NCBI GenBank assembly: GCA_021852325.1
Contig: JAJZNM010000003.1
Coordinates: 1 to 25,235 of the forward strand
Length of the DNA stretch: 25,235 bases
DNA from: Pseudomonadota bacterium
GTDB taxonomy: Bacteria > Pseudomonadota > Gammaproteobacteria > JAKAQQ01
Direction of reading: 5' to 3'
The notes beneath the pieces were generated by a model. It was not told where the DNA came from and did not search any database. It saw nothing but the letters and a program-made list of their open reading frames with translations. The position numbers were made by a program, and so were the translations under genes. The stretch's first letter is position 1; each line of letters starts with the position of its first letter. This document shows positions 1,637 through 21,010 of this stretch, in pieces.

Positions 1637-1662
1637 GGTTCACTCCCGGGTCAAAAACGGTT

Positions 1663-2898
1663 TCAAAGGTCGAGCAGGAGCCGGTCCGGGTTCTCCAGGG
1701 CTTCCTTGACCGCGACCAGGAACTGGACGGCTTCCTGACCGTCGACCAGGCGGTGGTCGTAGGTGAGCGCCAGATACATCATCGGCCGGATCACGACCTC
1801 GCCCGCGATCGCAACCGGGCGGTCCTGGATCTTGTGCATCCCGAGGATCGCACTTTGCGGCGGGTTGATGATCGGGGTCGACACCAGCGATCCGAACACG
1901 CCGCCATTCGTGATCGTGAAGGTTCCGCCCTCGAGATCGGCGAGTTCGAGCCCGCCCGAACGGGCCTTTTCGGCAAACTGCGCGATCCGGGTCTCGATCC
2001 CGGCAAAGCCGAGCTGATCGGCATCCCGCACGACCGGCACCACGAGTCCGCGCTTCGAGGACACGGCAATGCCGATGTCCCAGAAATCGTGGTAGACGAG
2101 GTCGGATCCCTCGATCGAGGCATTGATGACCGGAAAGCGCTTGAGGGCGAGCACGGACGCTTTCACGAAAAACGACATGAAGCCGAGTTTGACCCCATGC
2201 GTCTTCTCGAACGGTTCGCGCAGGGTTGCGCGCATCTCGATCACACGGCTGAGGTCCACTTCATTGAACGAAGTCAGCATGACAGCATTCAGGTTGGATT
2301 CGCGCAGCCGCTCCGCGATCCGGGCCCGGATCCGGGTCATGGGAACGCGGCGGATCCGAGACGAGGCGCCGGCAGCGGCTGGGCGGGAAAGCGGAACGGT
2401 TTCGGGACCTTGCCCGAGATGGGCCAGGACATCTCCTTTGCTGATGCGCCCCTCGCGGCCGTGCCCTTCGATCGTTCCGGGATCCAGTCCATGCTCATCG
2501 ATCAGCCGGCGGGCGGCCGGAGCCATGGGCGGGGACTTGGCGGGGCGGGGGGGCGCCTCGCGAGTCGGCTCGGGGGGAGGAAGCGGCCCGGCTTTGGGCG
2601 ACGGCCGAGACTGATCGGGCTGAGAAGCTCCGCTCTGGGGTGAAGTGACCGGCGCCGAGACGCCTTCCTCGAGGATCGCGAGCACCGTGCCCGCCGTCAC
2701 GGTTGCGCCGTTGGCCACACGGATCTCGCGGAGGATACCGCTCGCGGGAGCAGGCACCTCAAGCACGACCTTGTCGGTTTCGAGGTCGACCAGGTTCTCG
2801 TCTCGTGCCACGGATTCTCCGGCTTTCTTGCGCCAGTTGACGACCGTGGCGTCGGCCACGGATTCGGGAAGGGGCGGGACCTTGATTTCGATGCTCAT
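1663..2898 (-). CDS. sucB: 2-oxoglutarate dehydrogenase E2, dihydrolipoamide succinyltransferase (411 aa)
   Basis: Starts [18 protein letters not shown], with lipoyl motif ETDKVVLEV, a Pro/Ala linker, E3-binding [13 protein letters not shown] and catalytic YDHRLVDG. Start reassigned from 3144 to ATG 2898, which forms an ATGA overlap with the sucA stop (2895-2897). Confidence 0.96.
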
Positions 2899-5912: not shown

Positions 5913-6593
5913 ATGGCTGTTAAAGCTCAATCCGACCCGATCTCCTTCGACGAAACTGTCGAAGTGCACTACCCGACGACCGTTCTCGAACGACGCCATC
6001 ACGGATGCGGGGATTTGAACGCGGCACTGTACACGCTGCTCAAAAGCCTGGCAGAAACCAACCGCAGCGACCATCGCGAGAACGCCATCTACTCGGGACG
6101 AATCTCGACACAAGGCGGATACCAGACCGCAAAGCACAGGAATTTCCTGGAACGGACCGATGCAGCTGTAGTTACCCTCCGGGAGAGAATCATCCTGCCC
6201 GCTGCAGCACACTACCTAACCCAGGTTTTTGGCCCCCCGGCGTCCAGTCTCAGGCCCTGGCTCATGGGTTGGGCCAACTTTCTCACGGCAGGGGACTGGC
6301 AGGCTCCCCATATGCATCCCACTCCGGGGAACCTCGCGAGTGGGGTCTACTATGTCCGCCTGCCCGAAGGCCGGGAGCCGCCCCAGGGTTGGATCGAGTT
6401 CTTGAACCCCCATCCCATCTCCGTCCACCACGGATTCACACTCACCCGTCGCCTTGAACCCGAGGAAGGGAAATTGCTCCTTTTCCCGCCCTATCATATC
6501 CATTATGTGCATCCCTTCCGGTTGCCCGGCGAGCGTGCGATCATTGCTTTTGACTTGCTCCGTGAACGGCCCAATCTTGATCTCACATTCTGA
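5913..6593 (+). CDS. TIGR02466-like putative 2OG-Fe(II) oxygenase (copy 1)
   Basis: Family-typical WANF...GDWQAPHMHP (HxH), LASGVYYV, EFLNPHP, EGKLLLFPPYHIHYVHP and RAIIAFD. Confidence 0.8.
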   Translation: MAVKAQSDPISFDETVEVHYPTTVLERRHHGCGDLNAALYTLLKSLAETNRSDHRENAIYSGRISTQGGYQTAKHRNFLERTDAAVVTLRERIILPAAAHYLTQVFGPPASSLRPWLMGWANFLTAGDWQAPHMHPTPGNLASGVYYVRLPEGREPPQGWIEFLNPHPISVHHGFTLTRRLEPEEGKLLLFPPYHIHYVHPFRLPGERAIIAFDLLRERPNLDLTF

Positions 6594-7963
6594 TGCAGGA
6601 ATCCCGGCCCATGAATAAAAACGTCACCCCAGCCGCGCTCGGACAGAACATCGAGGACTACCCGATTGCAGAACTGCCGGACCAGATTGCTCTGCTCACA
6701 AACTGCGCCGAGGTGCTGGTTCGGGATGGTCGGCTTGAAGACGCGGAAAAGATCTACCGCCGCATCCTGGAAGCTGCTCCCCATCATTTGCCGGCTATGA
6801 CGTTCATTGCGATGCGGGCCTACGAAGCCGGAAATCTGGAAGAAAGCCTGCGTCACCTTCAGGCCGCGATTCGCGTCAATTCCAAGAGTTCCCAGCTGCA
6901 GGAAAACCTGGCCATAGTCCGACGCAGTCAGGGGCTGCCCGAAAATGCCCTTGAAGCGATCGACCGCGCAATCCAGATCAACCCCGAGCGTGCTGCGGCA
7001 CACCTTCACCGGGGAATGATCCTCGAGGATCTGGGAAGGGCCCATGAGGCGCTGCGGTGCTACGGAAAAGCCTTGACCCTCGAGCCCGTCTTGCGGACCA
7101 GTCCGGCGACACAGCCACCCGGAATCCAGAAACTGGCGGCGCATGCCATCGGTCGGCTCGCTCCACTCCGTCTGGCTGCCATTTCCAAGGCAGCACAGGA
7201 GGTCGAAACGCTCTTTGAGTCCAAGCTGCCGGAACGGGCACACCGGTTTCTCGACATTTTCAAGGGGTTGACGCCCCCATCCTATGAAGATCCGGAGCAG
7301 CACCCCGACTTTCTTTTTTATCCCGGCCTCAATCCCAAACCCTGGTTTGAACGTGGGGAGTTCCCCTGGGTCAAGGCTTTCGAGGCCGAAACACCGGGCA
7401 TCCTGGCGGAATACCAGGCGCTCGTTTCGGAAAACCGCGCTGCCACACCGGAGCAGCCGTACGTCCCGGAAGGAGCCCGGCAGAGCCCGATCTGGAAAGA
7501 TCTGGCGGGATCGCTCGATTGGAGCAGCTACCACCTTTACCGTTCCGGAAATCCGGTCCCTGGCATCATCCAACGCTGCCCCCGAACCTTTTCGGCGCTC
7601 AAGCATTTGCCACTCGCGCGCGGACAATCCCATGCACCAGAGATTTTTTTCTCCATCCTGAAACCCGGTACACACCTCCCGCCGCATCATGGCCTGTCAA
7701 ATGCCAAGCTCACCGTCCATCTGGGACTTGGAATTCCGGATCGCTGCGGCATCATGGTCGGTGGCGAGACGCGCCAGTGGCGTGAGGGTCGGGTACTGGT
7801 TTTCGACGACAGCTTCAAGCATGAGGCGTGGAACGCGAATACGGCCACACGTGTTGTCCTGATCGCAGACATCTGGAATCCTGCACTGACCCCAATCGAA
7901 CAGGAACTCGTCGCCCGCGTGATCGATGCACATGACACCTTCAGCCGGGAATATTTCTCCTGA
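6593..7963 (+). CDS. TPR-repeat protein with C-terminal aspartyl/asparaginyl beta-hydroxylase (Asp_Arg_Hydrox) domain
   Basis: N-terminal TPR-like repeats (GRLEDAEKIYRRILEAAP, GNLEESLRHLQAAIRVNS, LGRAHEALRCYGKALTLEP). C-terminal FSILKPGTHLPPHHGLSN..LTVHLGL, W.EGRVLVFDDSFKHEAWN and RVVLIADIWNP. TGATG overlap with the upstream gene. Confidence 0.88.
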   Translation: MQESRPMNKNVTPAALGQNIEDYPIAELPDQIALLTNCAEVLVRDGRLEDAEKIYRRILEAAPHHLPAMTFIAMRAYEAGNLEESLRHLQAAIRVNSKSSQLQENLAIVRRSQGLPENALEAIDRAIQINPERAAAHLHRGMILEDLGRAHEALRCYGKALTLEPVLRTSPATQPPGIQKLAAHAIGRLAPLRLAAISKAAQEVETLFESKLPERAHRFLDIFKGLTPPSYEDPEQHPDFLFYPGLNPKPWFERGEFPWVKAFEAETPGILAEYQALVSENRAATPEQPYVPEGARQSPIWKDLAGSLDWSSYHLYRSGNPVPGIIQRCPRTFSALKHLPLARGQSHAPEIFFSILKPGTHLPPHHGLSNAKLTVHLGLGIPDRCGIMVGGETRQWREGRVLVFDDSFKHEAWNANTATRVVLIADIWNPALTPIEQELVARVIDAHDTFSREYFS

Positions 7964-7987
7964 ACCCGATGCACCGAGGACCCGCAA

Positions 7988-8098
7988 ATGATCTCGACTG
8001 AACATGCCCTGAGGGCCGATCGTCTTCTGGCCGGAGCAGCGGGTTCTCCGGAAGATCCAGTGCCGGGCCATGCTAGGAGCCTCGAACGGTGGCTGTGA
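7988..8098 (+). CDS. Putative 36-aa small ORF, MISTEHALRADRLLAGAAGSPEDPVPGHARSLERWL (below the ORF-track cutoff)
   Basis: GAGGA at 7976-7980, 7 nt before ATG 7988, with TGA at 8096-8098. It fills the only sizeable gap in an otherwise coupled operon and overlaps the next GTG start by 10 nt. No homology is recognised. Confidence 0.3.
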   Translation: MISTEHALRADRLLAGAAGSPEDPVPGHARSLERWL

Positions 8099-8823
8099 GC
8101 CCCCCACGAACGACAAGAGGCCTGGAGTCAATTTTCGCCAGCCCGTTCTACCGTACCCAGCTGCCCAACTCGGAGGCATTCAATCTGAGGCTCAAACGCC
8201 ATTTGATTGAATGGGAGACCGCTCCACCCGCAAACGATCAGACACGACCCAGTCCGGTCCGCAAGCATAACGTCTTTGAGAGCGCATTCGACTTTTTTTA
8301 CTGGGATGATCCCGACGTCCAGTCCCTGGCCCAGTTCTGTCTCAATCACCTCGGCCATCTGATTCAGACGCTCAATGGCTACACGATGGAAGAGATGGCC
8401 GAGTTGCGCATCTACCACCACAGCTGGTTCCACCTGACCCGCCAAGGTGGCTACACGAGCTACCATCATCATCCCATGGCCTCCTGGTCAGGGGTGTACT
8501 GTGTCGACCCGGCCCTGTCCAATACAGCCCCCCCGGCCAGTGGCGTGCTCCGTTTCTTTGATCCCAGGGTGAATGTGGGCATGTTCGTCGACCCTGGCAA
8601 CAGCTATCTGGATTCGCCTTATGCGTTTGGTGCACTCGAACACATCTTCCAGGCGGGTGAACTGGTGCTGTTCCCGTCCTATCTCTACCATGAAGTGAGC
8701 CCCTACACGGGCAGCGGCATCCGCATCACGGTTGCCTTCAACGCCTGGGTGCGTTACCAGGATGAACCTGCACTCGCCCCCGGTTACCGTCGCGTACGCC
8801 AGACCCCAAGCTCTCCGGGTTGA
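8089..8823 (+). CDS. TIGR02466-like putative 2OG-Fe(II) oxygenase (copy 2)
   Basis: SWFHLTRQGGYTSYHHHP (HxH), SWSGVYCV, LRFFDPR, GELVLFPSYLYHEVSP and RITVAFN. RBS AGGAG at 8075-8079 precedes GTG 8089. Confidence 0.82.
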   Translation: MAVSPPRTTRGLESIFASPFYRTQLPNSEAFNLRLKRHLIEWETAPPANDQTRPSPVRKHNVFESAFDFFYWDDPDVQSLAQFCLNHLGHLIQTLNGYTMEEMAELRIYHHSWFHLTRQGGYTSYHHHPMASWSGVYCVDPALSNTAPPASGVLRFFDPRVNVGMFVDPGNSYLDSPYAFGALEHIFQAGELVLFPSYLYHEVSPYTGSGIRITVAFNAWVRYQDEPALAPGYRRVRQTPSSPG

Positions 8824-8838
8824 GTGGCCGGAGCATAC

Positions 8839-10137
8839 ATGGACCCGGCCTCGATGCATCTTTCAACCCCCAGTCCGGAATTGGGGCAGGCCCTTGATGC
8901 CCTGAAAAACCGCGATTTCAGCCAAGCCCATCGTCGCCTGCTCGAGATGGCCGGCCGGGGACAAACCGATGCCATGGGCTATCTTGGCATGCTCTACCTC
9001 CGCGGGCTTGGAATACCCTATGATCCCACCCAGGCCTACCATTGGACTGAACAGGCTGCCCGGGAAGGCAACGGGACTGCACTCTTGGCATTGGCCAACC
9101 TCGTCTACCTCGGCCTGGGAACACTGCGCGATCCCGAACGTGCCAAAGCAGTTCTGCTGGCAGCTGCCCGCACGGGGAATTCCGCAGCGCTACGCACGCT
9201 TGGCCTCGTCTATCTCGGACTCGGGGCCAACTGGCATCAGGCAGCCATCACCTGTTTCGAGGCGGCCGCCACACTCCGCGACGTCTTCGCCACGCACGCT
9301 TTGAGTGTCATCCGGCTCGGCTTGGGACAAATCGATTTGGCACTGCCCATCCTGTCCTGGGCAGGAACACAGGGATTGTTCCCCAGCCTCCTGCGGCTCA
9401 AAAACCTCCAGCACCAGCTTGGCATCTCCACCGTCCGAGACCTGGCGATTCTCCCACCGCAATATCCGGACCGCCCCCATCTGCGAACCATCATTCCTTT
9501 CGAATGGGAAACCCGATCAGCGGGATCAACCACTGAGTGTGACACCCGCATCGCACTTCGCATCGGCACAGACCTGCTTCATCCCATTGAGTGCGACTAC
9601 CTGATCGCCCTTGCAGCACCGCATCTCCGACCTGCCGAAACCCAAGAGCCCCATACGGGCCGCATCATCAAAAACCCGGTCCGGACATCGAGCGCCATGA
9701 ATTTTCCGCCCAATCTCGAAGACCTCATCTTGATGCGGCTCGAAGAACGGATTGCGTCATTCGCCGGGCAGCACCTGGAGCGGGCCGAGGCACTGGCGGT
9801 ACTCCGCTACCGTCCGGGTGAAGAATACCGGCCACATTACGACGCATTCGACCCCGAGACCTGCAAACGGGATCCAGAATGTATCCGCCTGGGACAACGC
9901 ACCGAAACGGTGCTCACCTACCTCAATGATGGATTTACAGGTGGCGCGACCGATTTCCCCACACTGCAACAAACGATTGAATCCCGATCCGGGCAGGTTG
10001 TCGCTTTTCGCAATCTCGATGCCTCGGGGAACCGCATGCCGCTTGCGCTACATGCCGGATTGCCGGTACAAAGTGGAGAAAAATGGCTGGCCACGCTCTG
10101 GTTCCGCGAACGCCCGGGCGCAAGGAGTATGGGGTAG
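8839..10137 (+). CDS. Sel1-like-repeat protein with C-terminal prolyl 4-hydroxylase-type 2OG-Fe(II) oxygenase domain
   Basis: Sel1-like repeats (AMGYLGMLYLRGLG, ALLALANLVYLGLG, ALRTLGLVYLGLG). P4H-type motifs V.NPVRTS, YRPGEEYRPHYDAF (HxD), TVLTYLND.FTGGATDFP and LHAGLPVQSGEKWLATLWFRE (distal His, 2OG-binding Lys). ATG 8839 follows GGAG; an alternative GTG lies at 8824. Confidence 0.87.
   Translation: MDPASMHLSTPSPELGQALDALKNRDFSQAHRRLLEMAGRGQTDAMGYLGMLYLRGLGIPYDPTQAYHWTEQAAREGNGTALLALANLVYLGLGTLRDPERAKAVLLAAARTGNSAALRTLGLVYLGLGANWHQAAITCFEAAATLRDVFATHALSVIRLGLGQIDLALPILSWAGTQGLFPSLLRLKNLQHQLGISTVRDLAILPPQYPDRPHLRTIIPFEWETRSAGSTTECDTRIALRIGTDLLHPIECDYLIALAAPHLRPAETQEPHTGRIIKNPVRTSSAMNFPPNLEDLILMRLEERIASFAGQHLERAEALAVLRYRPGEEYRPHYDAFDPETCKRDPECIRLGQRTETVLTYLNDGFTGGATDFPTLQQTIESRSGQVVAFRNLDASGNRMPLALHAGLPVQSGEKWLATLWFRERPGARSMG
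9099..9225 (+). repeat. Intragenic Sel1 repeat duplication visible at DNA level
   Basis: cctcgtctacctcggcctggg (9099) and cctcgtctatctcggactcggg (9204) are 105 nt (35 codons) apart, both encoding LVYLGLG. Confidence 0.65.
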
Positions 10138-10814
10138 GCTTCATGCCTTCCAGCATGTTCGAGATAGACACGGGCCTCGGACGCCCGCGCTGGCCTTGAA
10201 GTCGGTCGGCAGTCCATTGCTGAGGAATGGGCGACCGCGTTACCGATCGTACAGCATTTGATGTTGCCCAAAGGGATCTGGGGCCACTCCCTCCCGAGTG
10301 CGGCCATGCGGATGAGAGCAAAAACCTTCCTGAAGTGGAACCGTCGATCGGATGCGCCAGCCACACTTATTTTGACAAGGCCCTCCCGATATATCAGCAC
10401 GAGACCGATTTTGGGTCCCATCATGACCCGCTGACCACCGGTTCGCAAACTGCCCATGTGCCCGTTCCAGGCATCGGAGCAATGGTCGGGTGTGAGTCCC
10501 CAACGCCCACTCTGCGGCGCTAATCGATCACCCGGATGATCAGCAGCTGGAGTGCCAGAAACCATTCTGGGTGACCCGGCACCACGCCAAAGGATTGACG
10601 ACCTTTCCTCGTATTTTCCCAACCCGGTTCCTCAACCCATGGCACAGGAATCAGGTTTCCAAGGCTCTTGTGCCTCCGTGAACAGATTTGTGGGACCTTG
10701 ATCCACATCGCATCCATCCGGGCGAGAGTCGGTGGATCGGCGAGCCCTGATCCGGAGTGGAAGCGCCAGCATGGCCCTTCACTTTCTGGCGCGCACGTCC
10801 GTTCAGACAAAGAC

Positions 10815-10846
10815 AAAAAACCCGTGGTTCCTTGCGGAACCACGGG
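10815..10846 (-). terminator. Intrinsic terminator downstream of the TonB-dependent receptor
   Basis: Perfect 11-bp stem CCCGTGGTTCC/GGAACCACGGG (10821-10846) with a 4-nt loop, followed by T6 on the minus strand, 31 nt after the stop codon. Confidence 0.9.
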
Positions 10847-10877
10847 CAGTGTTCTTTTGTTGTCGTTGTTGGATTTT

Positions 10878-13800
10878 TTAGAAGCGCACGCCTACACGGG
10901 CATAGAAGAACCGGCCCGGGACCCGATAGTAAAACGGCTGATAGCTATTCGCGAAAGCCGTCATCGAAATCGGCGGATTCCTGTCGAAGAGGTTCCGGAT
11001 TCCGAAGGTAACATCGGTATTCCAAGCATCCACGTCGTAGGTGACCTGGATATCGTTGTAGACGGTCGTTCCGAGCTCGTTCAAGCCCTTGACCACATAC
11101 GGATCATGCAACTGCTGTGGCGTCTGAAGAATATCACCACACCAGCCAGTCCCGACCTGCGGCAGAATGAAGTCAGCCACGATACCCGAGTTCTGGCACT
11201 GTTCCCACATGGGACCAATCAGCTCCATCGACCAAGCTGCCGACCACGGACCATAGCTCCACTGCAGGACGGCATTTGCGCGGTGCTTCGGAATGAGTCC
11301 CGTCACCGTTCCTGCTTCTTCCTGGGTGAACTCCGTCGGCAAACCAGTCTGGGCATTCAGGCCCACAAAGGAATTGACGAACGTCTTCGTAAATGTGGCA
11401 TTCACGTCCAGCTTGAAGTCGCCGATCGGAGTCGATGGGAAGCGGTAACCGGCATTGATGTCCCAGCCATCCGTCTTGAGTGAGCCCACATTTGCGTTGA
11501 GCGACAGGATATTGGTGATTGATCCAGGCGTGTTGTAGGTTGCGCCATTCCGCTGGATATCACTGCAATAGAGCCCGACCGAACTGTAACAGCTGTCGAG
11601 AATCGTCTGCGGTCCCACTCCACCCGCGGTAATCGCATTCACCAGCTCGATCTTGTAGAAATCGGCGGAAATGTCAAAGCCGGGGATGTAAGACGGACTG
11701 TAGACGAATCCAATCGTGCGCGAGATCGACCGTTCCGGAGTCATGTGGGCGTTTCCGCCGACCGTGACCGGAATCTGGCCGAGCGGCTGGATCGCCGTGG
11801 CCGGGCAGTTTGGCAGCGGGTGTCCCGACCTGATCGAAGCCGGGCAGGGATCGGTCAACGGGTCAAAAGACTGTGCCTGACCCGCGAAGAACTCGCTGAT
11901 CGATGGCACCCGGAACCCCTGCGACCAGCTGCCGCGGAAGAGCAGGCTACGGATCGGGGCATACTTGAATGCGATGCGTCCCGACGTGTTGGTGGCCCGG
12001 CTGCCGACCGGCGTCGTGGGATTGGCAAATCCCGCCCACGTCGCCTGGGTCCAGCGGTTCGCGATGTCTACCGACAGGTGATGGACCAGGAATACATCGC
12101 GCACCAAGGGCACGTTGACTTCGATGTATTCGGCATCGCTCGCCTCCCGGCCACTGGTCGGGAATGATGTGTTCGTCGTTGCATTGCCTGAGGCCACGAG
12201 CGGATCGGGAGTGAAGTAGCCATTGTCTTCCAGGTACTCATAGCCCACGGCGACACCGAGCGGTCCGGCTGGCAGGTCGACGAGTGTGCCCGTCAGGTTG
12301 CCGGAATAGTCGCGCTGCGTGATGGCATCCTCGCTCACGCTGGTGTAGTCGATGTAGTTGGCCATGGCCGGCGTGATCGTGCCTTGCCCGGTCTGGAGGT
12401 CATATCCGCCAAAAAGATCAAGCGGGACGCAGCCCGGCGTGCTTTGGCAGATGTTGAGAGGTCCCAGGGCCAAGGCGAGACGGGAGGTGTTCTGGAGACC
12501 CGTGGTCTTGAAAATCACGTCGCGATTGGCATATCCGTAGTGGACGTTCCAATCCCAGTCATGGCCGAGCATCCGGAAGTAACCCTTGAAGCCCATCCCG
12601 AAACCAAAGGTCCGCTTGTTCGAATCGAATACACGGTACCCGGATTCAATCATGCGGCGGCCCAGGAAGAACAGGGTGTCACTATGGGTCGCGCAGTTCG
12701 CTGTGCCATAGAGAGAGCACCATTGCGCCGCGCCGGCCGCACCACTATACGGCACGAGATCAACGCCGAACGGGTTATAGGGGTTCGTGGCCGAGATACC
12801 CACCTTGATCCCATTGTTCGAGTCATCCGACCCGAACACACCAAGGAACAGTGGATTCGGTGCGAGGGTGCTCACCGACGTGTTGTCGTTGTAGAGCACG
12901 TTCGTATCGAACTGGAGGTGTGAGTTGAAACGGTAGTGGGCCTGTGAATAGGCATACCACTGTTCCGACGGGGTCATGAGATAGTTCGCCGGGGCGTAAT
13001 TATAGGCTTCGGAAGGCGAGAACGGCTGCGGATTCGCATGTGGGCCATTCAGCGGGCCTGCGATATCGTAAAGCCCCGAAGTCGTTCCAAACGGCTGCGA
13101 AGTGACCGTGGGATACGGATTGACTGGTCCTGCGTAGATGAAGCGGCCGCCGGGCGTGCCGGAGCTGCCCGCCTCATTACCGGTGCCGATGATCGGCAAT
13201 TGGGAAAGCGTCCGGTTGCCAGCCCAGATCGGCTGCTGTTCCCGGTAGCCGACCGACAGCAAGGCCCCTGCACGGCTGTTGCTCGCTCCCAGGGTAAAGC
13301 TGTATTCCTGGACCTTGCCGTCCCAGTGGTTGCTGCTGCTGATCGGCTGGGCCAGGCCCAATCCCGCCGGGACGGAGGCATTGTGCCCTTGGTAGATGCC
13401 CATGTAGGCACTGGCTTCGGCTCCATTGAAGTTCTGCACGGTGATGATGTTGATCACCCCGGCAATCGCATCCGATCCATAAATCGGTGATGCGCCATCG
13501 AGCAACACTTCCACGCGCTCGATGATCGCAGCCGGGATCGTATTGAGGTCGACGGAACCACCCAGAGTCGGAATCCAGCGGTGTCCATTGAGCAGGACGA
13601 GAACCCGCTGTGAGCCCAGGTTGTGCAGGTCAACGAACGTGTCGCCGTCATTTCCGTTGTTGGTCTGCGTATTGATGGCTGCGCCAGCCGATGTGATCGA
13701 CTGGAGAATGTTGCCAATCGTGACCTCGCCAGTCAGATTGAGTTGCTGTTTCGTGAGAACCACAACCGGCTGTGCGGTGACCGTACTCGTTCGCATGATG

Positions 13801-13940
13801 CGCGAACCCACGACCTCGATTTTGGCGAGCTTCGTGGTATTGCTTGCGGCCAGCGCTGCCGGTGCGGCGACGACTCCTGCAGACGCGCCGGCGATGAGCG
13901 CCCCGCGTACTGCTTGCCGCACAAGATTTCTCTGTTTCAT
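10878..13940 (-). CDS. TonB-dependent outer-membrane receptor (1020 aa), Cys-rich loops
   Basis: Signal peptide MKQRNLVRQAVRGALIAGASAGVVAAPAALA, TonB-box region KIEVVGSRI, plug motifs LHNLGSQRVLVLLNGHR and IERVEVLLDGASPIYGSDAIAGVINIIT, and C-terminal GIRNLFD...PGRFFYARVGVRF ending in Phe. Start reassigned from 14264 to ATG 13940, with GGAGG 10 nt upstream. Confidence 0.95.
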   Translation of the reverse strand: MKQRNLVRQAVRGALIAGASAGVVAAPAALAASNTTKLAKIEVVGSRIMRTSTVTAQPVVVLTKQQLNLTGEVTIGNILQSITSAGAAINTQTNNGNDGDTFVDLHNLGSQRVLVLLNGHRWIPTLGGSVDLNTIPAAIIERVEVLLDGASPIYGSDAIAGVINIITVQNFNGAEASAYMGIYQGHNASVPAGLGLAQPISSSNHWDGKVQEYSFTLGASNSRAGALLSVGYREQQPIWAGNRTLSQLPIIGTGNEAGSSGTPGGRFIYAGPVNPYPTVTSQPFGTTSGLYDIAGPLNGPHANPQPFSPSEAYNYAPANYLMTPSEQWYAYSQAHYRFNSHLQFDTNVLYNDNTSVSTLAPNPLFLGVFGSDDSNNGIKVGISATNPYNPFGVDLVPYSGAAGAAQWCSLYGTANCATHSDTLFFLGRRMIESGYRVFDSNKRTFGFGMGFKGYFRMLGHDWDWNVHYGYANRDVIFKTTGLQNTSRLALALGPLNICQSTPGCVPLDLFGGYDLQTGQGTITPAMANYIDYTSVSEDAITQRDYSGNLTGTLVDLPAGPLGVAVGYEYLEDNGYFTPDPLVASGNATTNTSFPTSGREASDAEYIEVNVPLVRDVFLVHHLSVDIANRWTQATWAGFANPTTPVGSRATNTSGRIAFKYAPIRSLLFRGSWSQGFRVPSISEFFAGQAQSFDPLTDPCPASIRSGHPLPNCPATAIQPLGQIPVTVGGNAHMTPERSISRTIGFVYSPSYIPGFDISADFYKIELVNAITAGGVGPQTILDSCYSSVGLYCSDIQRNGATYNTPGSITNILSLNANVGSLKTDGWDINAGYRFPSTPIGDFKLDVNATFTKTFVNSFVGLNAQTGLPTEFTQEEAGTVTGLIPKHRANAVLQWSYGPWSAAWSMELIGPMWEQCQNSGIVADFILPQVGTGWCGDILQTPQQLHDPYVVKGLNELGTTVYNDIQVTYDVDAWNTDVTFGIRNLFDRNPPISMTAFANSYQPFYYRVPGRFFYARVGVRF

Positions 13941-13996
13941 TTGTTGATAGCCTCCACATGTGCTGAGGTGATAATGCTCCTGGCGCGACCAGGATT

Positions 13997-14030
13997 GTGG
14001 TGAGCATACCACTTTCAACCCTGCTGTCAA
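13997..14030 (-). promoter_or_regulatory. Candidate sigma70 promoter of the receptor, with a palindrome over the -10
   Basis: TTGACA (14030-14025), 16 nt spacer ending in TGG, then TATGCT (14008-14003). The palindrome GTGGT-N6-ACCAC (13997-14012) overlaps the -10. Confidence 0.6.
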
Positions 14031-14047
14031 GCCTTGGCGCGGAGCAT

Positions 14048-14080
14048 AAAAAAAACTCCGTCCAATGAGTCCGGACGGAG
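14048..14080 (-). terminator. Intrinsic terminator upstream of the receptor promoter
   Basis: Minus-strand CTCCGTCC(G)-loop-(T)GGACGGAG, an 8-bp stem plus a G-U pair, followed by T8. Confidence 0.8.
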
Positions 14081-14148
14081 CACATCGCCAGCTTTGTGTG
14101 TTCAATACAACAATAATGCTTGTTGCTAACACGCGACAGTCCTCAAAT

Positions 14149-14157
14149 TGGTACAAT
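14149..14157 (+). promoter_or_regulatory. Candidate extended -10 promoter for the sulfotransferase operon
   Basis: TGG-TACAAT at 14149-14157, ~70 nt upstream of ATG 14228. No good -35 element. Confidence 0.35.
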
Positions 14158-14227
14158 CGCCAACGGCATGCGGTGAATCGCAGCCCGAGATTCCACCCTC
14201 CAGCCCCAGGACTGTGCCCGTATTCGC

Positions 14228-15769
14228 ATGAATGAGCCACCGCCGCCCGGTTCAGCGCCCGCATTTCCCACTGAGGGGGTCCTGGTCGATGCCAGTACGT
14301 CTTACGAGCTGGGAAATGAGCTACGGAGGCAAGGCGACCCTGTCAGCGCAGAGGCCGCGCTCCGTGAGACGCTGCGCTTGGCGCCGGATCACTTCGAGGC
14401 CCGCACAAGCCTTGCCTTCCTCTACCTGGAACTAGATCGAAAAGACGAGGCGGCACGGTTATACCGTGACTGGCTTGCATCCGGCCCCAAAGACGGGACC
14501 CGACTCGTGAAGGTCGCCCTTTTCCTCGAAGGAATCCAAGAAGGGGGCCTCGCCTTGGCCTGCCTGGAACGTGCCACGGAACTGGCACCCGGCCTGGGGG
14601 CAGCTTGGTTTCACCGGGGACGCCTGCACTTCCAATCGGATCGAATCGACTCGGGCACCGCATACTTCGAGCAAGCACTTCAAAACGACCCGGATCTCGG
14701 TACCGCCTTTCTTCAGTTGTCCCACGCACGGCACTTCCGGTCCCGGCGGGATCCCTTGATCGACTTCTTCATGGCTCAGGCGACTGATCCCAAGCGCCCG
14801 GAATCAACCCGGGCCTGTTTCGAATTTGCACTGGGCAAGATCTGGGATGATCTTGAGGAATGGGACCAGGCCCTCCAATGGGTCGAGACGGCCAACGCGA
14901 TTCGCCGCAAGACCATACGATTCGATCCCGATCGATGCCGAAGCCTGCTTCGCGAACGCCTCGTCGCGCCCCACCGCGTCTGGGCACCCTCCACTCTCCT
15001 ACCTCGGGAGGAGGTGGAACCGCTGTTTATCGTCGGCCTCCCGAGAAGTGGTTGCACGTTCATCGAGCAAGTCCTCCTCGAACACCCCGCCATCCGCAGC
15101 GCCGGGGAACTGCCGATGCTCCCTGCTCTCGTCCAGGAAACCCACCTCGTCGAACGCTGGCGTGAAGCTGATCAGGCTGGAGCCCCCCCCTCAGATGACG
15201 AACTCGAAGCCCTCCGGGCCTCCTATCGTGAGGTCCTGATGCGTTCGATCCCGCCTCCCACCTCGGGTGAGTCCACGCGCTATGTGATCGACAAGAACCC
15301 GCTCAATTTCTTTCATGTGGGCGTGATCCGGAGGCTTTTTCCACACGCACCCATACTGGCACTGGAACGCGATCTCCGGGATGTGCTGATTTCACTCTAC
15401 TTCCACGATTTCACCCATCCTGATCTCGCATTCACCTACTCCATCGATCACCTGCTTTTCTTTTTCCGCTGTCACGAAACGCTCATGCCGTTGTGGAAGG
15501 CCATTACCGCCGGCCATCTTCGTGCCATCCGCTATGAAACGCTCGTGGCCGAACCCGCCACCGTCGTCCAGGCAGTTCTGCGCTTTCTCGCACTGCCAGC
15601 AACCGGTGAGGCTGGAACACGCTTGTCTGCACCGAATATCATTGCCCGTGCCCATGCCTGGCAGGCCCGACAGCCGATCTATGGCCGTGCCCCAAGACAC
15701 TGGGAACACTATGCACCGGGATTGCTCAGGCTCTATCCCGAACTTCGCTCCATCGGGTTTGGCCCATGA
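14228..15769 (+). CDS. TPR-repeat sulfotransferase (copy 1, divergent motifs)
   Basis: N-terminal TPRs, 5'-PSB loop IVGLPRSGCTFIEQVL, DKNPLNF, 3'-PB RDLRDVLISLY, YETLVAEP and WQARQPIY. Confidence 0.85.
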   Translation: MNEPPPPGSAPAFPTEGVLVDASTSYELGNELRRQGDPVSAEAALRETLRLAPDHFEARTSLAFLYLELDRKDEAARLYRDWLASGPKDGTRLVKVALFLEGIQEGGLALACLERATELAPGLGAAWFHRGRLHFQSDRIDSGTAYFEQALQNDPDLGTAFLQLSHARHFRSRRDPLIDFFMAQATDPKRPESTRACFEFALGKIWDDLEEWDQALQWVETANAIRRKTIRFDPDRCRSLLRERLVAPHRVWAPSTLLPREEVEPLFIVGLPRSGCTFIEQVLLEHPAIRSAGELPMLPALVQETHLVERWREADQAGAPPSDDELEALRASYREVLMRSIPPPTSGESTRYVIDKNPLNFFHVGVIRRLFPHAPILALERDLRDVLISLYFHDFTHPDLAFTYSIDHLLFFFRCHETLMPLWKAITAGHLRAIRYETLVAEPATVVQAVLRFLALPATGEAGTRLSAPNIIARAHAWQARQPIYGRAPRHWEHYAPGLLRLYPELRSIGFGP

Positions 15770-17610
15770 GCCGTGAGCCGATCCCGCGCCTCCCGCGTCC
15801 AGTCCTCGAACGCGGACTCCGCGAGGCCATCCAGCTTATGCAAAAGGGTCGGCACGAGGCAGCAGATCGTGAGTTCAACATGCTCTTGCGTTACGGTGTC
15901 GAATTTCCTCCACTCCTGCATTTCGCAGGATTGAACTGCCTGGAGATGGGTCACACCGAGATGGGATTGGAGCTTTTGAAACGTTCGGTCGCGCTTGCTC
16001 CCACGGACCGGGCCTTTCAAGGTAACCTGGCCACTGCCTTGGTCCGGCTACACCGCTGGCAGGAAGCGGAAACACTGCTTCGCGTCCTTCGGAATGAGGA
16101 TCCGCAGGATCCCATGATTGCCTTCAATCTGGCGAACCTTCTGCATCTGACCGAACGGGACGGGGAAGCACTGCCCCACTGGCAGGTGGCCGTAAACCGG
16201 GCACCCGACTGGGCACCCGGCTGGCTCGGCTTGGGGGAAAGCCTTACCGAACTCAACGATCTTAAAGCTGCCGACCAGGCCTATGCCCGTGCCCAGGCGC
16301 TACGGCCACGGGATCCGCTCATCCCCACTGCACGGGCGGAACTGTGGTCCCTAGAAGAAGAAAACGGCACACGGGCCCAATCGTTCTACAGCGTGGCGCT
16401 CAAGGTCGAACCGGGATTCCCGCCGGCCATCATGGGTCTCGCCGCGCTCGAAGGACAGATGGGACAGTTCGACCGGGCACTCGAGCGCCTGCGAACATTG
16501 CTCAGCCGGCAGCCGGGCGCCTATGCCGCAGCCTGGCTGCTGGCGCGATTCAAGTCCCATGCAGCAGACGGTCCAGACAGCAAACTCATCGAGCGTTCGA
16601 TGGAGCACGCCCATCACGAACCCGAGCATCCCCTGGCATACCATGCTTTTTTCGCCTGGGGCAAGGTCCTCGAAGACCGGTACGAATACGATCGGGCCTG
16701 GGCCGCCTTCGAGCGTGGACAGGCCTTGCGTCCACACACCTCGACCAATGCTGAAACGGAACAACGCCAGTACATGCGGCTCATCCTGGAAGCGGTCGAT
16801 CACCGATTCATCGAGAGGCACCGCTTTCTTCATCCCGGCCCTGTCAATCCCATCTATATCGTGGGCATGCCGCGTTCGGGAACCACTCTCGTGGAACAAA
16901 TGCTGTCCGCACATCCAGCCATCACGGGTGGCGGAGAGATGACGGCACTGCACAACTGCTTCCGCCATGCGCTCGGTCTGCCGGATCTCGGCCAGTTGCC
17001 CTTCGTCTTGAATCCGCTCTCGCCCGTCGCCTGGAAGAAGCTGCGCGCCGACGTCGACCAGCTCCATGCCGCCTCTGCCCATGGCAAACCCAATCTCACG
17101 GACAAGATGCCCACCAACTTCATGTTTCTGGGACTGCTTCATGCCCTTTCCCCCAATGCGCGGATCATTCACGTCATGCGTGATGCCCGTGACACCTGTG
17201 TTTCGTGTTACACGACCCTCTTCCGGACCAGTCACAAGTTCGCCACCAACCTCGAACACCTCGGGCATTACTACCGGATGTATGAGACTCTGATGGAACA
17301 TTGGCGACAACAGCTGCCACCGGACATGCTGATCGAAATCCGCTATGAATCCCTGGTACGGAATCCGCGCGAAGCACTTGTACGTCTTCTAGATGCCCTG
17401 GGGCTTCCCTTCGAGGAGGCTTGCCTGAAACCGGAACAAACCGGACACCGCATCAAGACGGCAAGCGTCTACCAGGCCCGCCAGCCGATACGCACCGACT
17501 CGGTGGCTCGCTGGCAACGTTACGCCGCCCATTTGGGTCCACTGGAGAGGGCGCTTGCCATCACCGACCCACTGGGCCGGTCGGGCCTTGCCGAAACCCA
17601 CCCGCTATAA
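15766..17610 (+). CDS. TPR-repeat sulfotransferase (copy 2, canonical motifs)
   Basis: Multiple TPRs, IVGMPRSGTTLVEQML, TDKMPTNF, RDARDTCVSCY, YESLVRNP and KTASVYQARQPI. ATGA overlap with copy 1. Confidence 0.9.
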   Translation: MSREPIPRLPRPVLERGLREAIQLMQKGRHEAADREFNMLLRYGVEFPPLLHFAGLNCLEMGHTEMGLELLKRSVALAPTDRAFQGNLATALVRLHRWQEAETLLRVLRNEDPQDPMIAFNLANLLHLTERDGEALPHWQVAVNRAPDWAPGWLGLGESLTELNDLKAADQAYARAQALRPRDPLIPTARAELWSLEEENGTRAQSFYSVALKVEPGFPPAIMGLAALEGQMGQFDRALERLRTLLSRQPGAYAAAWLLARFKSHAADGPDSKLIERSMEHAHHEPEHPLAYHAFFAWGKVLEDRYEYDRAWAAFERGQALRPHTSTNAETEQRQYMRLILEAVDHRFIERHRFLHPGPVNPIYIVGMPRSGTTLVEQMLSAHPAITGGGEMTALHNCFRHALGLPDLGQLPFVLNPLSPVAWKKLRADVDQLHAASAHGKPNLTDKMPTNFMFLGLLHALSPNARIIHVMRDARDTCVSCYTTLFRTSHKFATNLEHLGHYYRMYETLMEHWRQQLPPDMLIEIRYESLVRNPREALVRLLDALGLPFEEACLKPEQTGHRIKTASVYQARQPIRTDSVARWQRYAAHLGPLERALAITDPLGRSGLAETHPL

Positions 17611-17631
17611 TTCAAGTTTGAGGCGAGATAT

Positions 17632-18105
17632 ATGATGGATCCATCCGAACCGAACGCAAGCACCGACCCGGACGAAACGAGTCTCGACCGAGCCATGGCT
17701 GCACTCACGGAGGAGTTGTCGACGCGGGAACGGGCACTCATTGAGTTCGTCCAAGCTCAGGTCTGGCTGCTCGCGGATCGCGAAACGGGATCGGACCCTG
17801 CCGCCCTGGCGAGCACACGCATGGGTCTCGTCTCGGACGGACCGCATCTCGACCAGGCGATGCTCGCCGTCTTCAGTACCCGGAGACGGGCCATCGCATT
17901 CCAGGGCGCACATGAGCGCAGCCTGCCCTGCATCATCGCGGTCGAAGCGCCCTTTGCGATCCTCTGTGTGCCGGAAGACTCCGGGATCATCATCAACCCG
18001 AACCAGAGTCCCGGTTTCCGGATCGGGCCTGAAGCCGCGCAGATGCTCAAGAACCAGATGATTGAACTGCAAAACCGCGGGTCGGCCGGCACCAGCCATC
18101 CGTAA
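17632..18105 (+). CDS. SseB-like protein (SseB N-terminal domain only)
   Basis: Pattern LDRAM....RERAL..FVQAQVWLL ... LAVFST ... GIIINPNQSPGFRIGPE resembles SseB-family proteins. GAGG RBS upstream and TAATG overlap with the next gene. Confidence 0.6.
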   Translation: MMDPSEPNASTDPDETSLDRAMAALTEELSTRERALIEFVQAQVWLLADRETGSDPAALASTRMGLVSDGPHLDQAMLAVFSTRRRAIAFQGAHERSLPCIIAVEAPFAILCVPEDSGIIINPNQSPGFRIGPEAAQMLKNQMIELQNRGSAGTSHP

Positions 18106-19832
18106 TGAACCGGCCCCACCTTTCCGACACCGCTATCGAGTCGCGCGCGCGGCTCTATGCATACATTGATGGATCGGAACTCGAACTTGCGGAAACCTTG
18201 TGCCAAAGCCTGCTGGGCAGCCAGATGGATGATCCGGAACTCCTCTACTTGTCCGGGGTCATTGCCCATAAAGCCGGGCATGCCCAAGAGGCCATCCAGC
18301 GCTTCCGCCAGGCGATCCCGCGCGCACCGACGCTGGAAAGCCGCGCGGCGTGCCTGATCGGGCTCGCAAAAGCCCATTGGATGCTGGAGCAGCTTGAGCA
18401 GGCACAGGCCGCTTTCGAAGAGGCCGGCCGGTTGCGGCCGGAACTGGCATCCACCTGGGTTTCGCTCGGTGCCGTCCACACAACCCTCGGGAATCCACTC
18501 GCTGCCGAGAGTTGCTTTAAGCGCGCGCTTGTGCTGGATCCGGATGAACCGGACGCGCTAACCGGGCTCGGACTCTGCCTGATGGATTTCGGACGCTATG
18601 CCGAAGCCCGGGCATCCCTGGAGCAAGTTCTCCAAAGATTTCCGGTGCATCCGGAGGCCGAGCAGGCACTTTGCACGCTCGATCGAATCACCGGAAACTT
18701 TGAAGCCGCAGAAAAGCGGCTGTTCGCACTGCTCAGCGAACACCCCGACCGCATGGGTTACGGTGACCTGGCTTCGATCAAAACCTTCAAGACTCCTGAC
18801 GACCCGAGGCTTGGCTTTCTGGAAAGTCGATACCAGTCCCTGCAGCCTGTAGTGACTCCGGAAGTGGTCCGGATTGATCTTATGTTTGGACTCGCCCGGG
18901 CCTATGACGATCTCGGAAGGCCTGAGGAAGCTTTCCCCTTGCTCGAAGCAGCCTCAAAGCTCAGACGCCGACATCTCAAGTTCGACCTCGCAACCGAAGA
19001 AGAACGCATGAAACGGATCGCCGGTATCTTCAGTCGCGTGTTCATCGAGCGATGCTGCCTTGATCACAACCCCTCGTCACCCCAGCCTCTTTTCATCGTG
19101 GGCCTTCCCCGTTCCGGTTCCACCCTGTTGGAACATATCCTGAGCGCTCATCCCGACATTGCAGCCAGCGGCGAACTCACGATTCTGCCCCGTCTGGCCG
19201 TCGGGCTCGGCGCGACCTGGGGTCGTGTGCCCGGGTTCCCCAACGCGCTCCCCGAAGCCCGCGCCAAGCGCGACCTCCAGGATTTCAGACTCCAGTATTT
19301 TCGTGAAATCGAAACGATGACCGGATACCAGCCTTCCGGCATATTCACCGACAAGCTGCTCGGTAATTTTCTCTTCATCGGGCTCATCCGAATGGCTTTC
19401 CCGGGCGCACACATCATACACATGCAAAGACATCCCCTGGATCAGGCTCTTTCCGCCTATCGCCAGCTTTTCACCCAAGGACATGCCTACACCTACGATC
19501 TCGAAGAGTTCGGGCATTACTTCATCGCCTACCAGAGACTCATGGCCCACTGGCGTGAAGTCGCCGGCGAGGCGATCTACGATCTCGCATATGAATCGCT
19601 GGCCAGTGACCCCGAACCGGAAATCCGGAAACTCATGGATTTCCTGGGTCTCCCTTTCGCCTCTGCGTGTCTCGCAACCGAGACCATCAGCCGCCCCGTG
19701 CGGACAGCGAGCGCGACCCAGGTTCGCGATCACATCCATCAGGATTCAATCGGGCACTGGAAGCACTACCGGATTCAGCTTGAACCCTTGCGGCAGATGC
19801 TGGGGCCATGGATCCCGCCCGAACCCAGCTGA
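18105..19832 (+). CDS. TPR-repeat sulfotransferase (copy 3)
   Basis: Multiple TPRs, IVGLPRSGSTLLEHIL, TDKLLGNF, RHPLDQALSAY, YESLASDPE and RTASATQVR. Confidence 0.9.
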   Translation: MNRPHLSDTAIESRARLYAYIDGSELELAETLCQSLLGSQMDDPELLYLSGVIAHKAGHAQEAIQRFRQAIPRAPTLESRAACLIGLAKAHWMLEQLEQAQAAFEEAGRLRPELASTWVSLGAVHTTLGNPLAAESCFKRALVLDPDEPDALTGLGLCLMDFGRYAEARASLEQVLQRFPVHPEAEQALCTLDRITGNFEAAEKRLFALLSEHPDRMGYGDLASIKTFKTPDDPRLGFLESRYQSLQPVVTPEVVRIDLMFGLARAYDDLGRPEEAFPLLEAASKLRRRHLKFDLATEEERMKRIAGIFSRVFIERCCLDHNPSSPQPLFIVGLPRSGSTLLEHILSAHPDIAASGELTILPRLAVGLGATWGRVPGFPNALPEARAKRDLQDFRLQYFREIETMTGYQPSGIFTDKLLGNFLFIGLIRMAFPGAHIIHMQRHPLDQALSAYRQLFTQGHAYTYDLEEFGHYFIAYQRLMAHWREVAGEAIYDLAYESLASDPEPEIRKLMDFLGLPFASACLATETISRPVRTASATQVRDHIHQDSIGHWKHYRIQLEPLRQMLGPWIPPEPS

Positions 19833-19843
19833 GTGTTTCCAGC

Positions 19844-21010
19844 ATGACCCGAGCCACGCATTCCGCTCCTCCTCAAACCCCTATTTTGCGCAATGGGCCC
19901 ATTGCGCGTTGGGTTCGGTCCCGCATCGAGAAAGCCGGCATTGTGCCTGCCGGCCCCAATCCGTGGGATATCGAGATCCGGGATGGACGCTTTTTCCACA
20001 AGGTGTTTTTTCAAGGAACGCTCGGCTTCGGGGAATCCTACATGGATGGCGACTGGGAGGCACCGGCACTCGACCGCTGTCTCGAAAGGCTGGTCGCCCA
20101 AGGCCTCGATGACCCCCCGGGACTGGCCCGGATCCTGGAGCGGGCGCGTACCCTGGCTGGCTGGCTCCTCAATCTCCAGAATCCACGGCGGGCCTTCGAA
20201 GTCGGACGGCGGCACTATGACCGCGGTCTCGACCTCTTCCAGGCCATGCTCGACCCGCAACTGATCTACAGCTGCGGCTACTGGAAAGAGGCCCGGACGC
20301 TCGAGGCGGCGCAGGAAGCCAAATGCGCGCTCATCTGCCGGAAACTCGGGCTCGCCCCGGGGCTGCGCCTCCTCGACATCGGATGCGGCTTCGGCGGTCT
20401 CGCCCGCTATGCCGCGGAACACTATGGGGTCGAAGTGCATGGCATCACGGTCTCGCGCCAGCAGTTCGAGTACGCAAAGACTCACACCGCGGATCTCCCC
20501 ATCCATTTCGAGATCCGGGATTACCGGGACCTCGATGGCACCTACGACCGGGTTGTCTCGGTCGGCATGTTCGAGCACGTGGGGGCCAGGAACTACCGGG
20601 CCTTCTTCGAGACCGTACACCGGGTGCTCCGACCGGAAGGGCTCTTTCTCCTCCATTCGATCGGCGGCAACCGCTCGCGGCAGCGCACCGATCCCTGGAT
20701 CGAGCGTTACATCTTTCCGAACAGTCTCGTGCCATCGGCCGCACAGATCACGCGCGCGTTCGAGAACCTGTTCGTCCTTGAGGACTGGCACAACTTTGGC
20801 GCCGACTACGAGAAGACCCTCAGGGCTTGGCACGACCGTTTTGAAGCGGCCTGGACGGCGCTCTCGAAAAGCTACGACGAGCGCTTTCACCGCATGTGGC
20901 GGCTTTACCTCCTGGCCAGTGCCGTCTCGTTCAAGCTCCGCAAGCTCCAGCTCTGGCAACTCGTCCTCTCGCCAACGGGCATCCCCGGCGGCTATCAAGC
21001 TCCACGCTGA
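19844..21010 (+). CDS. cfa: Cyclopropane-fatty-acyl-phospholipid synthase
   Basis: GTLGFGESYMDG, HYDRGLDLF, YSCGYW, SAM motif LLDIGCGFGG, SVGMFEHVG, WIERYIFP and F.RMWRLYL. An alternative ATG at 19808 overlaps the upstream gene. Confidence 0.92.
   Translation: MTRATHSAPPQTPILRNGPIARWVRSRIEKAGIVPAGPNPWDIEIRDGRFFHKVFFQGTLGFGESYMDGDWEAPALDRCLERLVAQGLDDPPGLARILERARTLAGWLLNLQNPRRAFEVGRRHYDRGLDLFQAMLDPQLIYSCGYWKEARTLEAAQEAKCALICRKLGLAPGLRLLDIGCGFGGLARYAAEHYGVEVHGITVSRQQFEYAKTHTADLPIHFEIRDYRDLDGTYDRVVSVGMFEHVGARNYRAFFETVHRVLRPEGLFLLHSIGGNRSRQRTDPWIERYIFPNSLVPSAAQITRAFENLFVLEDWHNFGADYEKTLRAWHDRFEAAWTALSKSYDERFHRMWRLYLLASAVSFKLRKLQLWQLVLSPTGIPGGYQAPR

Follow-up and report, generated by a model that had tools for sequence, protein, structure and literature searches.

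The 25,235-nucleotide stretch analysed here (the window) is contig C121 (JAJZNM010000003.1) of a 1.41-Mb gammaproteobacterial metagenome-assembled genome (MAG) that is 74% complete. Between positions 5913 and 19832 it carries genes for four Fe(II)/2-oxoglutarate (2OG) oxygenases and three sulfotransferases that use 3′-phosphoadenosine-5′-phosphosulfate (PAPS), placed on either side of a divergent gene for a TonB-dependent receptor (TBDR). We read this cluster as a single representative of a conserved module for hydroxylation and sulfation that is centred on the TBDR and whose helical-repeat solenoids would dock a Sec-exported polypeptide client, and we consider the chances of this reading to be about even. 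A first-pass annotation of the same DNA had let the cluster start at position 6593. That range encloses all five enzymes with solenoids but omits the oxygenase gene at 5913–6593, and the annotation passed over the strongest contextual clue, which is the tight and recurrent link to the TBDR.

Gene calls were based on Pfam and NCBIfam profile scans of the open reading frames (ORFs) in the window. The left arm of the cluster is composed of four forward-strand oxygenase genes: copy 1 of a TIGR02466-like 2OG-FeII_Oxy_5 oxygenase (5913–6593, 226 aa), an AspH-type enzyme in which tetratricopeptide repeats (TPR) precede an Asp_Arg_Hydrox domain (6593–7963, 456 aa), copy 2 of the TIGR02466-like oxygenase (8089–8823, 244 aa), and a prolyl 4-hydroxylase (P4H)-type enzyme with Sel1 repeats and a 2OG-FeII_Oxy_3 domain (8824–10137, 437 aa). 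Both TIGR02466-like oxygenases are without repeats. The TBDR gene (10878–13940, reverse strand) encodes plug and barrel domains (1020 aa with the signal peptide), and a divergent promoter region (13941–14227) separates it from the right arm. This arm runs along the forward strand through ST1 (14228–15769, 513 aa), ST2 (15766–17610, 614 aa), a gene for an SseB-family protein (17632–18105, 157 aa), and ST3 (18105–19832, 575 aa). Each of the three sulfotransferases combines TPR with a Sulfotransfer_3 domain (PF13469), and stop and start codons overlap at the ST1/ST2 and SseB/ST3 junctions. The G+C content of the cluster is 0.58–0.62, compared with 0.64–0.68 in the flanks.

The first-pass annotation had assigned N-terminal TPR or Sel1-like repeats to the AspH-like enzyme, the P4H-like enzyme, and all three sulfotransferases. 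The Pfam architectures agree, with TPR in the AspH-type enzyme, ST1, ST2, and ST3 and Sel1 repeats in the P4H-type enzyme, so that five of the seven enzymes carry solenoids. For the AspH-type enzyme the same arrangement is seen in an AlphaFold2 model (pLDDT 91, pTM 0.81), in which four TPR helix pairs (residues 29–163) are followed by a double-stranded β-helix (DSBH; residues 239–445). In the 1.41-Mb assembly, about 16 ORFs, or approximately 1% of the genes, match TPR_16, and six of them fall within two receptor-linked modules. With TPR proteins this rare in the genome, the concentration of solenoids here is not expected by chance. The statement that none of the enzymes has a signal peptide also held in a hydropathy scan based on 19-residue Kyte–Doolittle windows (threshold of 1.6) and N-terminal hydrophobicity: none of the seven enzymes contained a window of at least 1.6 or a hydrophobic N-terminus, and the signal peptide of the receptor, which served as a positive control, scored 1.86. 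On these sequence properties, every one of the seven enzymes is predicted to be a soluble cytoplasmic protein.

The AspH-type enzyme belongs to its family by a wide margin (PF05118, 148.5 bits; cut-off of 22.6). The best PDB sequence match of its C-terminal domain is human AspH (E-value 1e-30), and the modelled oxygenase domain superimposes on human AspH (5apa) with a Z score of 22.8 and a root-mean-square deviation (rmsd) of 2.2 Å over 190 residues. The iron site, which comprises two His residues and a Gly in place of the acidic ligand, is formed by H365, G367, and H410 (H679, G681, and H725 in human AspH), and the 2OG ligands are S354, H376, and R420 (S668, H690, and R735). These positions are invariant or nearly so across 12 homologues. 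The likeness extends to the domain order, because human AspH (5JQY, 6YYU, and 5APA) likewise has an N-terminal TPR array followed by a PF05118 DSBH. The whole chain can be aligned in order with the human construct that comprises TPR and oxygenase domains (6yyu; Z score of 24.1), with an rmsd of 19 Å, which indicates that the two domains are oriented differently to each other in the model than in human AspH. The best structural match of the TPR part is OGT (Z score of about 19). In human AspH, the TPR domain is required for hydroxylation of the substrate, and the side chain of the substrate Asp is salt-bridged by K666 and R688 (PMC6817910). The counterparts of these two residues are F352 and T374, and in all 12 homologues the positions are taken by F, L, or M and by T, M, A, or V, respectively. 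As neither counterpart is basic, the enzyme, although a member of the AspH family, may not target Asp. It further differs from human AspH in being soluble and cytoplasmic by prediction, whereas human AspH is anchored in the membrane of the endoplasmic reticulum (ER), and no gene for an EGF-like protein, the substrate of the human enzyme, is present at the cluster.

The P4H-type enzyme (PF13640, 48.6 bits) finds its PDB matches among P4H structures from Chlamydomonas, Bacillus anthracis, and human (E-values from 1e-23 to 4e-20), with Chlamydomonas P4H (2jig, 1e-23) at the top, and its residues 25–131 match Sel1 proteins in the PDB. The 2OG-FeII_Oxy_3 domain shares with prolyl 4-hydroxylases the HxD...H triad and the lysine that binds the C5-carboxylate of 2OG, to which H338-Y-D340, H410, and K420 align. 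In the α subunit of human collagen P4H (C-P4H), a helical-repeat domain that binds the peptide substrate is located N-terminal of the catalytic domain, as are the repeats in the P4H-type enzyme (cited in PMC6817910). Unlike C-P4H, this enzyme has Sel1 repeats, is predicted to be cytoplasmic, and has no collagen-like gene nearby. Of the two remaining oxygenases, copy 1 was identified by PF13759 (55 bits) and also matches TIGR02466 at 36 bits, under the cut-off of this model, and copy 2 scored 65 bits with PF13759 and 57.9 bits with TIGR02466 (cut-off of 62.5).

ST1–ST3 match Sulfotransfer_3 with scores of 119–151 bits (119 bits for ST1 and 147 bits for ST3). The PDB was searched with the catalytic domain of ST2, and ST1 and ST3 were judged by the same Pfam domain and by their motifs. 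Tyrosylprotein sulfotransferases (TPSTs) were the nearest relatives of ST2, with E-values of 1.8e-14 for 8w5z and 5e-12 for TPST2 and an overall range from 1.8e-14 to 1e-9; the sulfotransferases CurM-ST and OLS-ST scored below them. In the alignment of ST2 with TPST2, the 5′-phosphosulfate-binding (5′-PSB) PAPS loop and the columns of the catalytic Arg, Glu, Lys, and Ser residues are preserved. The motif PRSG is found at position 272 in ST1, 369 in ST2, and 335 in ST3. ST1 also contains GE at 293–294, DK at 355–356, and RDLRD at 381. GE, DK, and RDxRD motifs are present in the sulfotransferases, except that ST3 has RHPLDQ instead of RDxRD. The 5′-phosphosulfate loop, the 3′-phosphate motif, and the catalytic positions of a TPST-like enzyme could thus all be located. 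The genome contains a gene for adenosine 5′-phosphosulfate kinase and is thus equipped to make PAPS. Unlike TPST1, TPST2, and the bacterial enzyme RaxST, which are without TPR, ST1–ST3 all contain these repeats, and the cluster differs from both the TPST and RaxST cases in that three distinct sulfotransferase paralogues lie side by side. RaxST of Xanthomonas, whose substrate is RaxX, is also cytoplasmic. No gene for a RaxX-like precursor, a peptidase-exporter, or another secretion protein was found at the cluster. In one family member (G004, genus g3; locus L019, 12328–18043), ST2 is present in three tandem copies and the cluster is otherwise syntenic.

The SseB-family protein was recognised by a weak Pfam SseB match and by an atlas score of 0.94 to SseB clusters. 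One of its five AlphaFold2 models was confident, and the best fold match was the uncharacterised TTHA0547 (Z score of 8.2), with Tic22 at Z scores of 4–5. ST3 orthologues were found in seven family loci, and the overlap between the SseB stop codon and the ST3 start codon was kept wherever the small gene had been mapped to its end, in six of these seven examined loci.

The cluster had been described in the first-pass annotation as a cytoplasmic bacterial analogue of the animal AspH, P4H, and TPST enzymes. The homology (best PDB E-values of 1e-30, 1e-23, and 1e-14, respectively) and the predicted cytoplasmic location speak for this description, but the solenoid parallel does not extend to the TPSTs: these are without TPR, which leaves the repeats with a counterpart in only two of the three, AspH and collagen P4H.

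What ties these enzymes to the receptor is the recurrence of the arrangement. Sulfotransferase genes were present in all nine family genomes that were searched. In the fetched family loci, which come from three genera and have 34–95% protein identity, the order ST1-ST2-SseB-ST3 was syntenic together with the flanking sucA-sucB-lpd and cfa genes, and an orthologue of copy 1 was found at every locus. The genome that contains the window carries a second such module on contig C54, with a receptor of 69% identity divergent from an ST1-like gene (43%) and an ST2-like gene (59%), and the second module of family genome G002 includes a TPR-AspH gene of its own as well. The five Plug-domain matches in the window's genome (roughly 2 Mb) correspond to four or five receptor genes, and because two of so few receptors carry modules, the system is probably important to the organism.

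The module also recurs outside the family at 36–50% identity, with fusions of AspH-type and sulfotransferase domains and fusions of TPR, oxygenase, and sulfotransferase domains. A 480-kb metagenome contig (L030) contains a receptor of 47% identity and, in the same order as in the window, two sulfotransferase genes, an SseB gene, and a third sulfotransferase gene, accompanied by additional sulfotransferases, a 2OG-FeII_Oxy_5 oxygenase, a TPR-AspH, an AspH+Sulfotransfer_3 fusion, and repeat-less P4H-type (185 aa) and AspH-type (214 aa) enzymes. In G095, five sulfotransferase genes surround a receptor of 51% identity, so that both receptor orthologues are embedded among sulfotransferase genes. 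P0029 and P0032 combine TPR, 2OG-FeII_Oxy_5, and Sulfotransfer_3 in one protein, and the P0029 gene adjoins that of a 919-aa receptor. Synteny across the family, L030, G095, and the P0029 contig shows the TBDR gene co-conserved with an Fe(II)/2OG dioxygenase gene next to it.

TPR-sulfotransferase genes of other gammaproteobacterial families were also examined for their neighbours. Among 74 neighbouring ORFs at 17 loci, TBDRs were the commonest (7), followed by AspH (3) and one aminotransferase family (2); all others occurred once, TPR repeat families aside. In G032 (3.1 Mb with 48 Plug matches), a receptor lay within a few kilobases of the sulfotransferase gene at all six sampled loci and was directly adjacent in five, although these loci are paralogues and therefore not independent. 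Two-gene pairs of a TBDR and a TPR-sulfotransferase exist without other enzymes. BLASTP with the window receptor missed divergent receptors that were later found by Pfam. At one locus of another gammaproteobacterial family (L038, 7532–11772), a TPR-methyltransferase gene directly adjoins the TPR-sulfotransferase gene. In two alphaproteobacterial contigs (L028, 2816–12154; L029, 2779–10163), TPR-sulfotransferase genes are divergent from genes for autotransporters of 1025–1094 aa. A general link to autotransporters was considered and rejected, as two other alphaproteobacterial contigs did not have it and the positive pair is possibly related.

We favour a polypeptide client because the closest relatives of the enzymes modify proteins, because five of the seven enzymes carry repeats, and because oxygenases and sulfotransferases are fused in other versions of the module, which ties both activities to one substrate. 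The first-pass annotation had proposed a polypeptide substrate as well. The fusions and the lack of a scaffold-making gene sustain that proposal, and the change of the Asp-binding residues K666/R688 to F/T speaks against it. No precursor peptide, non-ribosomal peptide synthetase (NRPS) or other scaffold synthetase, protease, exporter, or inner-membrane importer was found in the window, in L030, or in the P0029 contig. The combination of a co-encoded precursor with a protease or exporter, as in systems for ribosomally synthesized and post-translationally modified peptides, was accordingly absent, and the only recurring non-enzyme partners are the receptor and the SseB-family protein. A 36-aa ORF at 7988–8098 was considered as a precursor peptide and rejected, as it has no counterpart in three related loci (L012, L014, and L020).

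In the mechanism that we propose, the TPR and Sel1 solenoids would dock an extended polypeptide client; human AspH, collagen P4H, and OGT use their repeats in this way. The oxygenases would add hydroxyl groups, and the sulfotransferases would sulfate either these hydroxyls or tyrosines, with all modification taking place in the cytoplasm before Sec export of the client. The co-encoded receptor would be the leading candidate for the client and carries about half of the weight of this explanation, the alternative being an unlinked peptide. The receptor is placed first because every receptor paralogue is accompanied by enzymes of its own and because autotransporters, which are also Sec-exported barrels, neighbour the sulfotransferases in the two alphaproteobacterial contigs. 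The specific proposal that the enzymes modify the co-encoded TBDR, or another Sec-exported outer-membrane protein, before export, with the SseB-family protein perhaps keeping the client unfolded, is tentative, and taken alone we regard it as unlikely. Cytoplasmic modification of exported proteins before secretion is known from the adhesin glycosyltransferases HMW1C and TibC. OGT, like the TPR-bearing window enzymes, has a catalytic domain preceded by a TPR array, but its chemistry and catalytic fold are different, and the resemblance to OGT, HMW1C, and TibC is one of logic and not of homology between catalytic domains.

Several observations weigh against a module that is dedicated to a receptor-linked polypeptide. 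The residues with which human AspH clamps Asp are replaced in the AspH-type enzyme, and the bacterial AspH-family enzymes of known function, LpxO and OlsC, act on lipids. Sulfotransfer_3 is also the family of CurM-ST and OLS-ST, whose substrates are linked to acyl carriers. The repeat-less module members in L030 indicate that a solenoid is not a requirement. Neither a TBDR nor an autotransporter lies near many of the TPR-sulfotransferases (L051, L052, and G015), and G015 combines many TPR-sulfotransferase matches with only two Plug matches, so other targets must exist for the family taken as a whole. A motif that would mark the client was not found in the analysed sequences, and no modified protein or peptide has been observed. 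In a Stellaceae contig (L052, 1–15806), the TPR-sulfotransferase gene is located amid genes for a ThiF-nitroreductase, a MacB-type exporter, and a FeeM acyltransferase; this resembles a natural-product cluster and shows that the TPR-sulfotransferase family has other contexts too.

The enzymes could instead make or process a small-molecule ligand of the receptor, for example a cell-associated hydroxylated and sulfated chelator or a nutrient derivative, either by synthesis in the cytoplasm or after uptake, with the repeats serving only to assemble or regulate the enzymes. A receptor gene clustered with enzyme genes is the usual layout of siderophore systems, and the co-duplication of receptor and enzymes would suit two ligand–receptor pairs equally well. 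Comparable neighbourhoods of TBDRs, 2OG oxygenases, and sulfotransferases were taken as secondary-metabolite pathways by Iyer et al. 2010 (PMC2938197), and the authors who described the Caulobacter receptor–dioxygenase pair CciT–CciO prefer models of substrate synthesis or turnover (PMC12004947). Against this stand three independent versions of the module that have no scaffold synthetase, exporter, or inner-membrane importer within them or next to them, and the protein-docking repeats, which five of the seven enzymes carry. An imported nutrient would be a use of PAPS without clear benefit, and neither promoter region contained a convincing Fur box (the best match, in the divergent promoter, agreed at 12 of 19 positions). 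We therefore consider a ligand pathway possible but rather unlikely.

A further alternative is that the target is an envelope lipid or lipopolysaccharide, which would be hydroxylated on an acyl chain or head group and then sulfated, and not a protein. The best NCBIfam models of the AspH-type enzyme are indeed those of OlsC (100 bits) and LpxO (60 bits), but these scores are far under the respective cut-offs of 450 and 500. The F and T in place of the Asp-clamping residues would fit a lipid target, as would weak NCBIfam matches to NoeE, which sulfates a lipo-oligosaccharide; the nearest relatives of the sulfotransferase domains are nonetheless the TPSTs. The gene for the cyclopropane-fatty-acyl-phospholipid synthase cfa overlaps the end of ST3 and directly follows it in five family genomes, but cfa was not found in the L030 or P0029 versions of the module. 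As the enzymes are all without membrane segments and the link to the receptor would be left unexplained, we regard a lipid target as improbable. We are equally doubtful that the solenoids mainly assemble the seven enzymes into one complex and bind no substrate, a variant of the inter-enzyme assembly that the first-pass annotation had suggested. The co-transcription of the enzymes and the stop/start overlaps at ST1/ST2 and SseB/ST3 are consistent with a complex, and the coexistence of repeat-less and repeat-bearing versions in L030 would fit bare enzymes that dock on partners with repeats. Nothing tested supports contacts between the enzymes, however, and the two-gene pairs of a TBDR and a TPR-sulfotransferase contain no other enzyme as a partner. 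Substrate binding is what the repeats do in AspH, collagen P4H, and OGT, the nearest analogues of solved structure (PMC6817910). On balance, the docking of a polypeptide client by the solenoids is the reading that we prefer.

Among known systems, the cluster is a much larger and so far uncharacterised variant of the CciT–CciO partnership, to which repeats and sulfotransferases have been added. In CciT–CciO, as in Fiu–YbiX of E. coli and PiuA–PiuC of Pseudomonas, a receptor is co-conserved with a cytoplasmic PF13640 2OG oxygenase, and the latter two pairs have been linked to cefiderocol resistance. The cluster in the window differs from this type by having four oxygenases, three TPR-sulfotransferases, and an SseB-family protein, and in that no convincing Fur box was found. 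Its receptor does not appear to be of the Fiu/PiuA type: the likeness to solved receptors (BtuB, Cir, and PfeA) is confined to the plug. The NCBIfam scan returned no YbiX-type model for the four oxygenases. CciT strictly and specifically requires the adjacent cytoplasmic dioxygenase CciO, and CciT protein is still made without CciO, the mutant phenotype having been seen in a pooled screen (Hernandez-Ortiz et al. 2025, PMC12004947). The cluster bears on the question of why some TonB-dependent transporters work only with an adjacent cytoplasmic dioxygenase. If the receptor is the client, the module would be a system devoted to the post-translational maturation of outer-membrane receptors in bacteria and could explain the need of CciT, Fiu, and PiuA for a cytoplasmic dioxygenase. 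The repeat domains offer an experimental handle that the bare dioxygenases do not, and make the idea of receptor maturation testable.

Neighbourhoods that combine Syn9-gp52/gp54-like oxygenases with TonB-like receptors and sulfotransferases were described by Iyer, Abhiman, de Souza and Aravind (NAR 2010, PMC2938197). For operons of β-hydroxylases and sulfotransferases, that paper predicts hydroxylation of a substrate followed by its sulfation, and the clusters contain halogenases, SapC, NRPS, or substrate genes of a collagen-like or a tail-collar type, none of which is present here; the consulted passages contain no description of the TPR and Sel1 fusions of this module. Beyond that paper, nothing was found in the literature on TPR-sulfotransferases together with TonB receptors or on the function of TIGR02466, and no experimental work on this cluster was found. 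TPR-bearing 2OG oxygenases have been said to appear characteristic of the ER (PMC6817910), and a soluble bacterial TPR-AspH is a counter-example to this statement. If the client is a protein, the module would match, in the bacterial cytoplasm, the three modifications of the animal secretory pathway (hydroxylation of Asp, hydroxylation of Pro, and sulfation) and would include a bacterial forerunner for TPR-AspH.

The start of the receptor gene was placed at 13940 by the signal peptide MKQRNLV, and a longer ORF (10878–14264) was rejected as an overcall. In an alignment of seven loci, the divergent promoter region (13941–14227) contains an invariant TTGACA/TATGCT pair on the receptor strand, a hairpin in the 5′ untranslated region (CCTGG-CGCGA-CCAGG) with a compensatory change in two genomes, and a GCAAC-N-GTTGC palindrome in front of the TACAAT of the sulfotransferase operon. 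At the other end, directly after the receptor stop codon, an intrinsic terminator (10815–10877, reverse strand) is formed by a GC hairpin and a T-run. It is 95–97% identical in three family genomes from two genera, including the genus of the window, whose receptor proteins have 71–77% identity to that of the window, and it may have a role beyond termination. Within the gap of approximately 740 nt between the P4H-type gene and the receptor gene (10138–10877), only the last ∼60 nt, which form the terminator, are conserved. The remaining ∼680 nt (10138–10814) are unique to this genome, are not repeated elsewhere in the assembly, and contain no convincing ORF; the corresponding gap in G009 is ∼110 nt.

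On the right, cfa (19808–21010, forward strand; NCBIfam PRK11705, 544 bits) overlaps the end of ST3 by 25 nt. Its membership in the system is uncertain, and its link to ST3 may be functional or merely inherited synteny. On the left, the cluster is preceded by lpd, sucB, and sucA (194–5771, reverse strand; Pfam and NCBIfam scans). These 2-oxoglutarate dehydrogenase genes adjoin the 2OG oxygenase genes throughout the family, and in a distant gammaproteobacterial MAG (L024, 880–8481) sucA-sucB-lpd likewise adjoins P4H-type and TPR-AspH genes.

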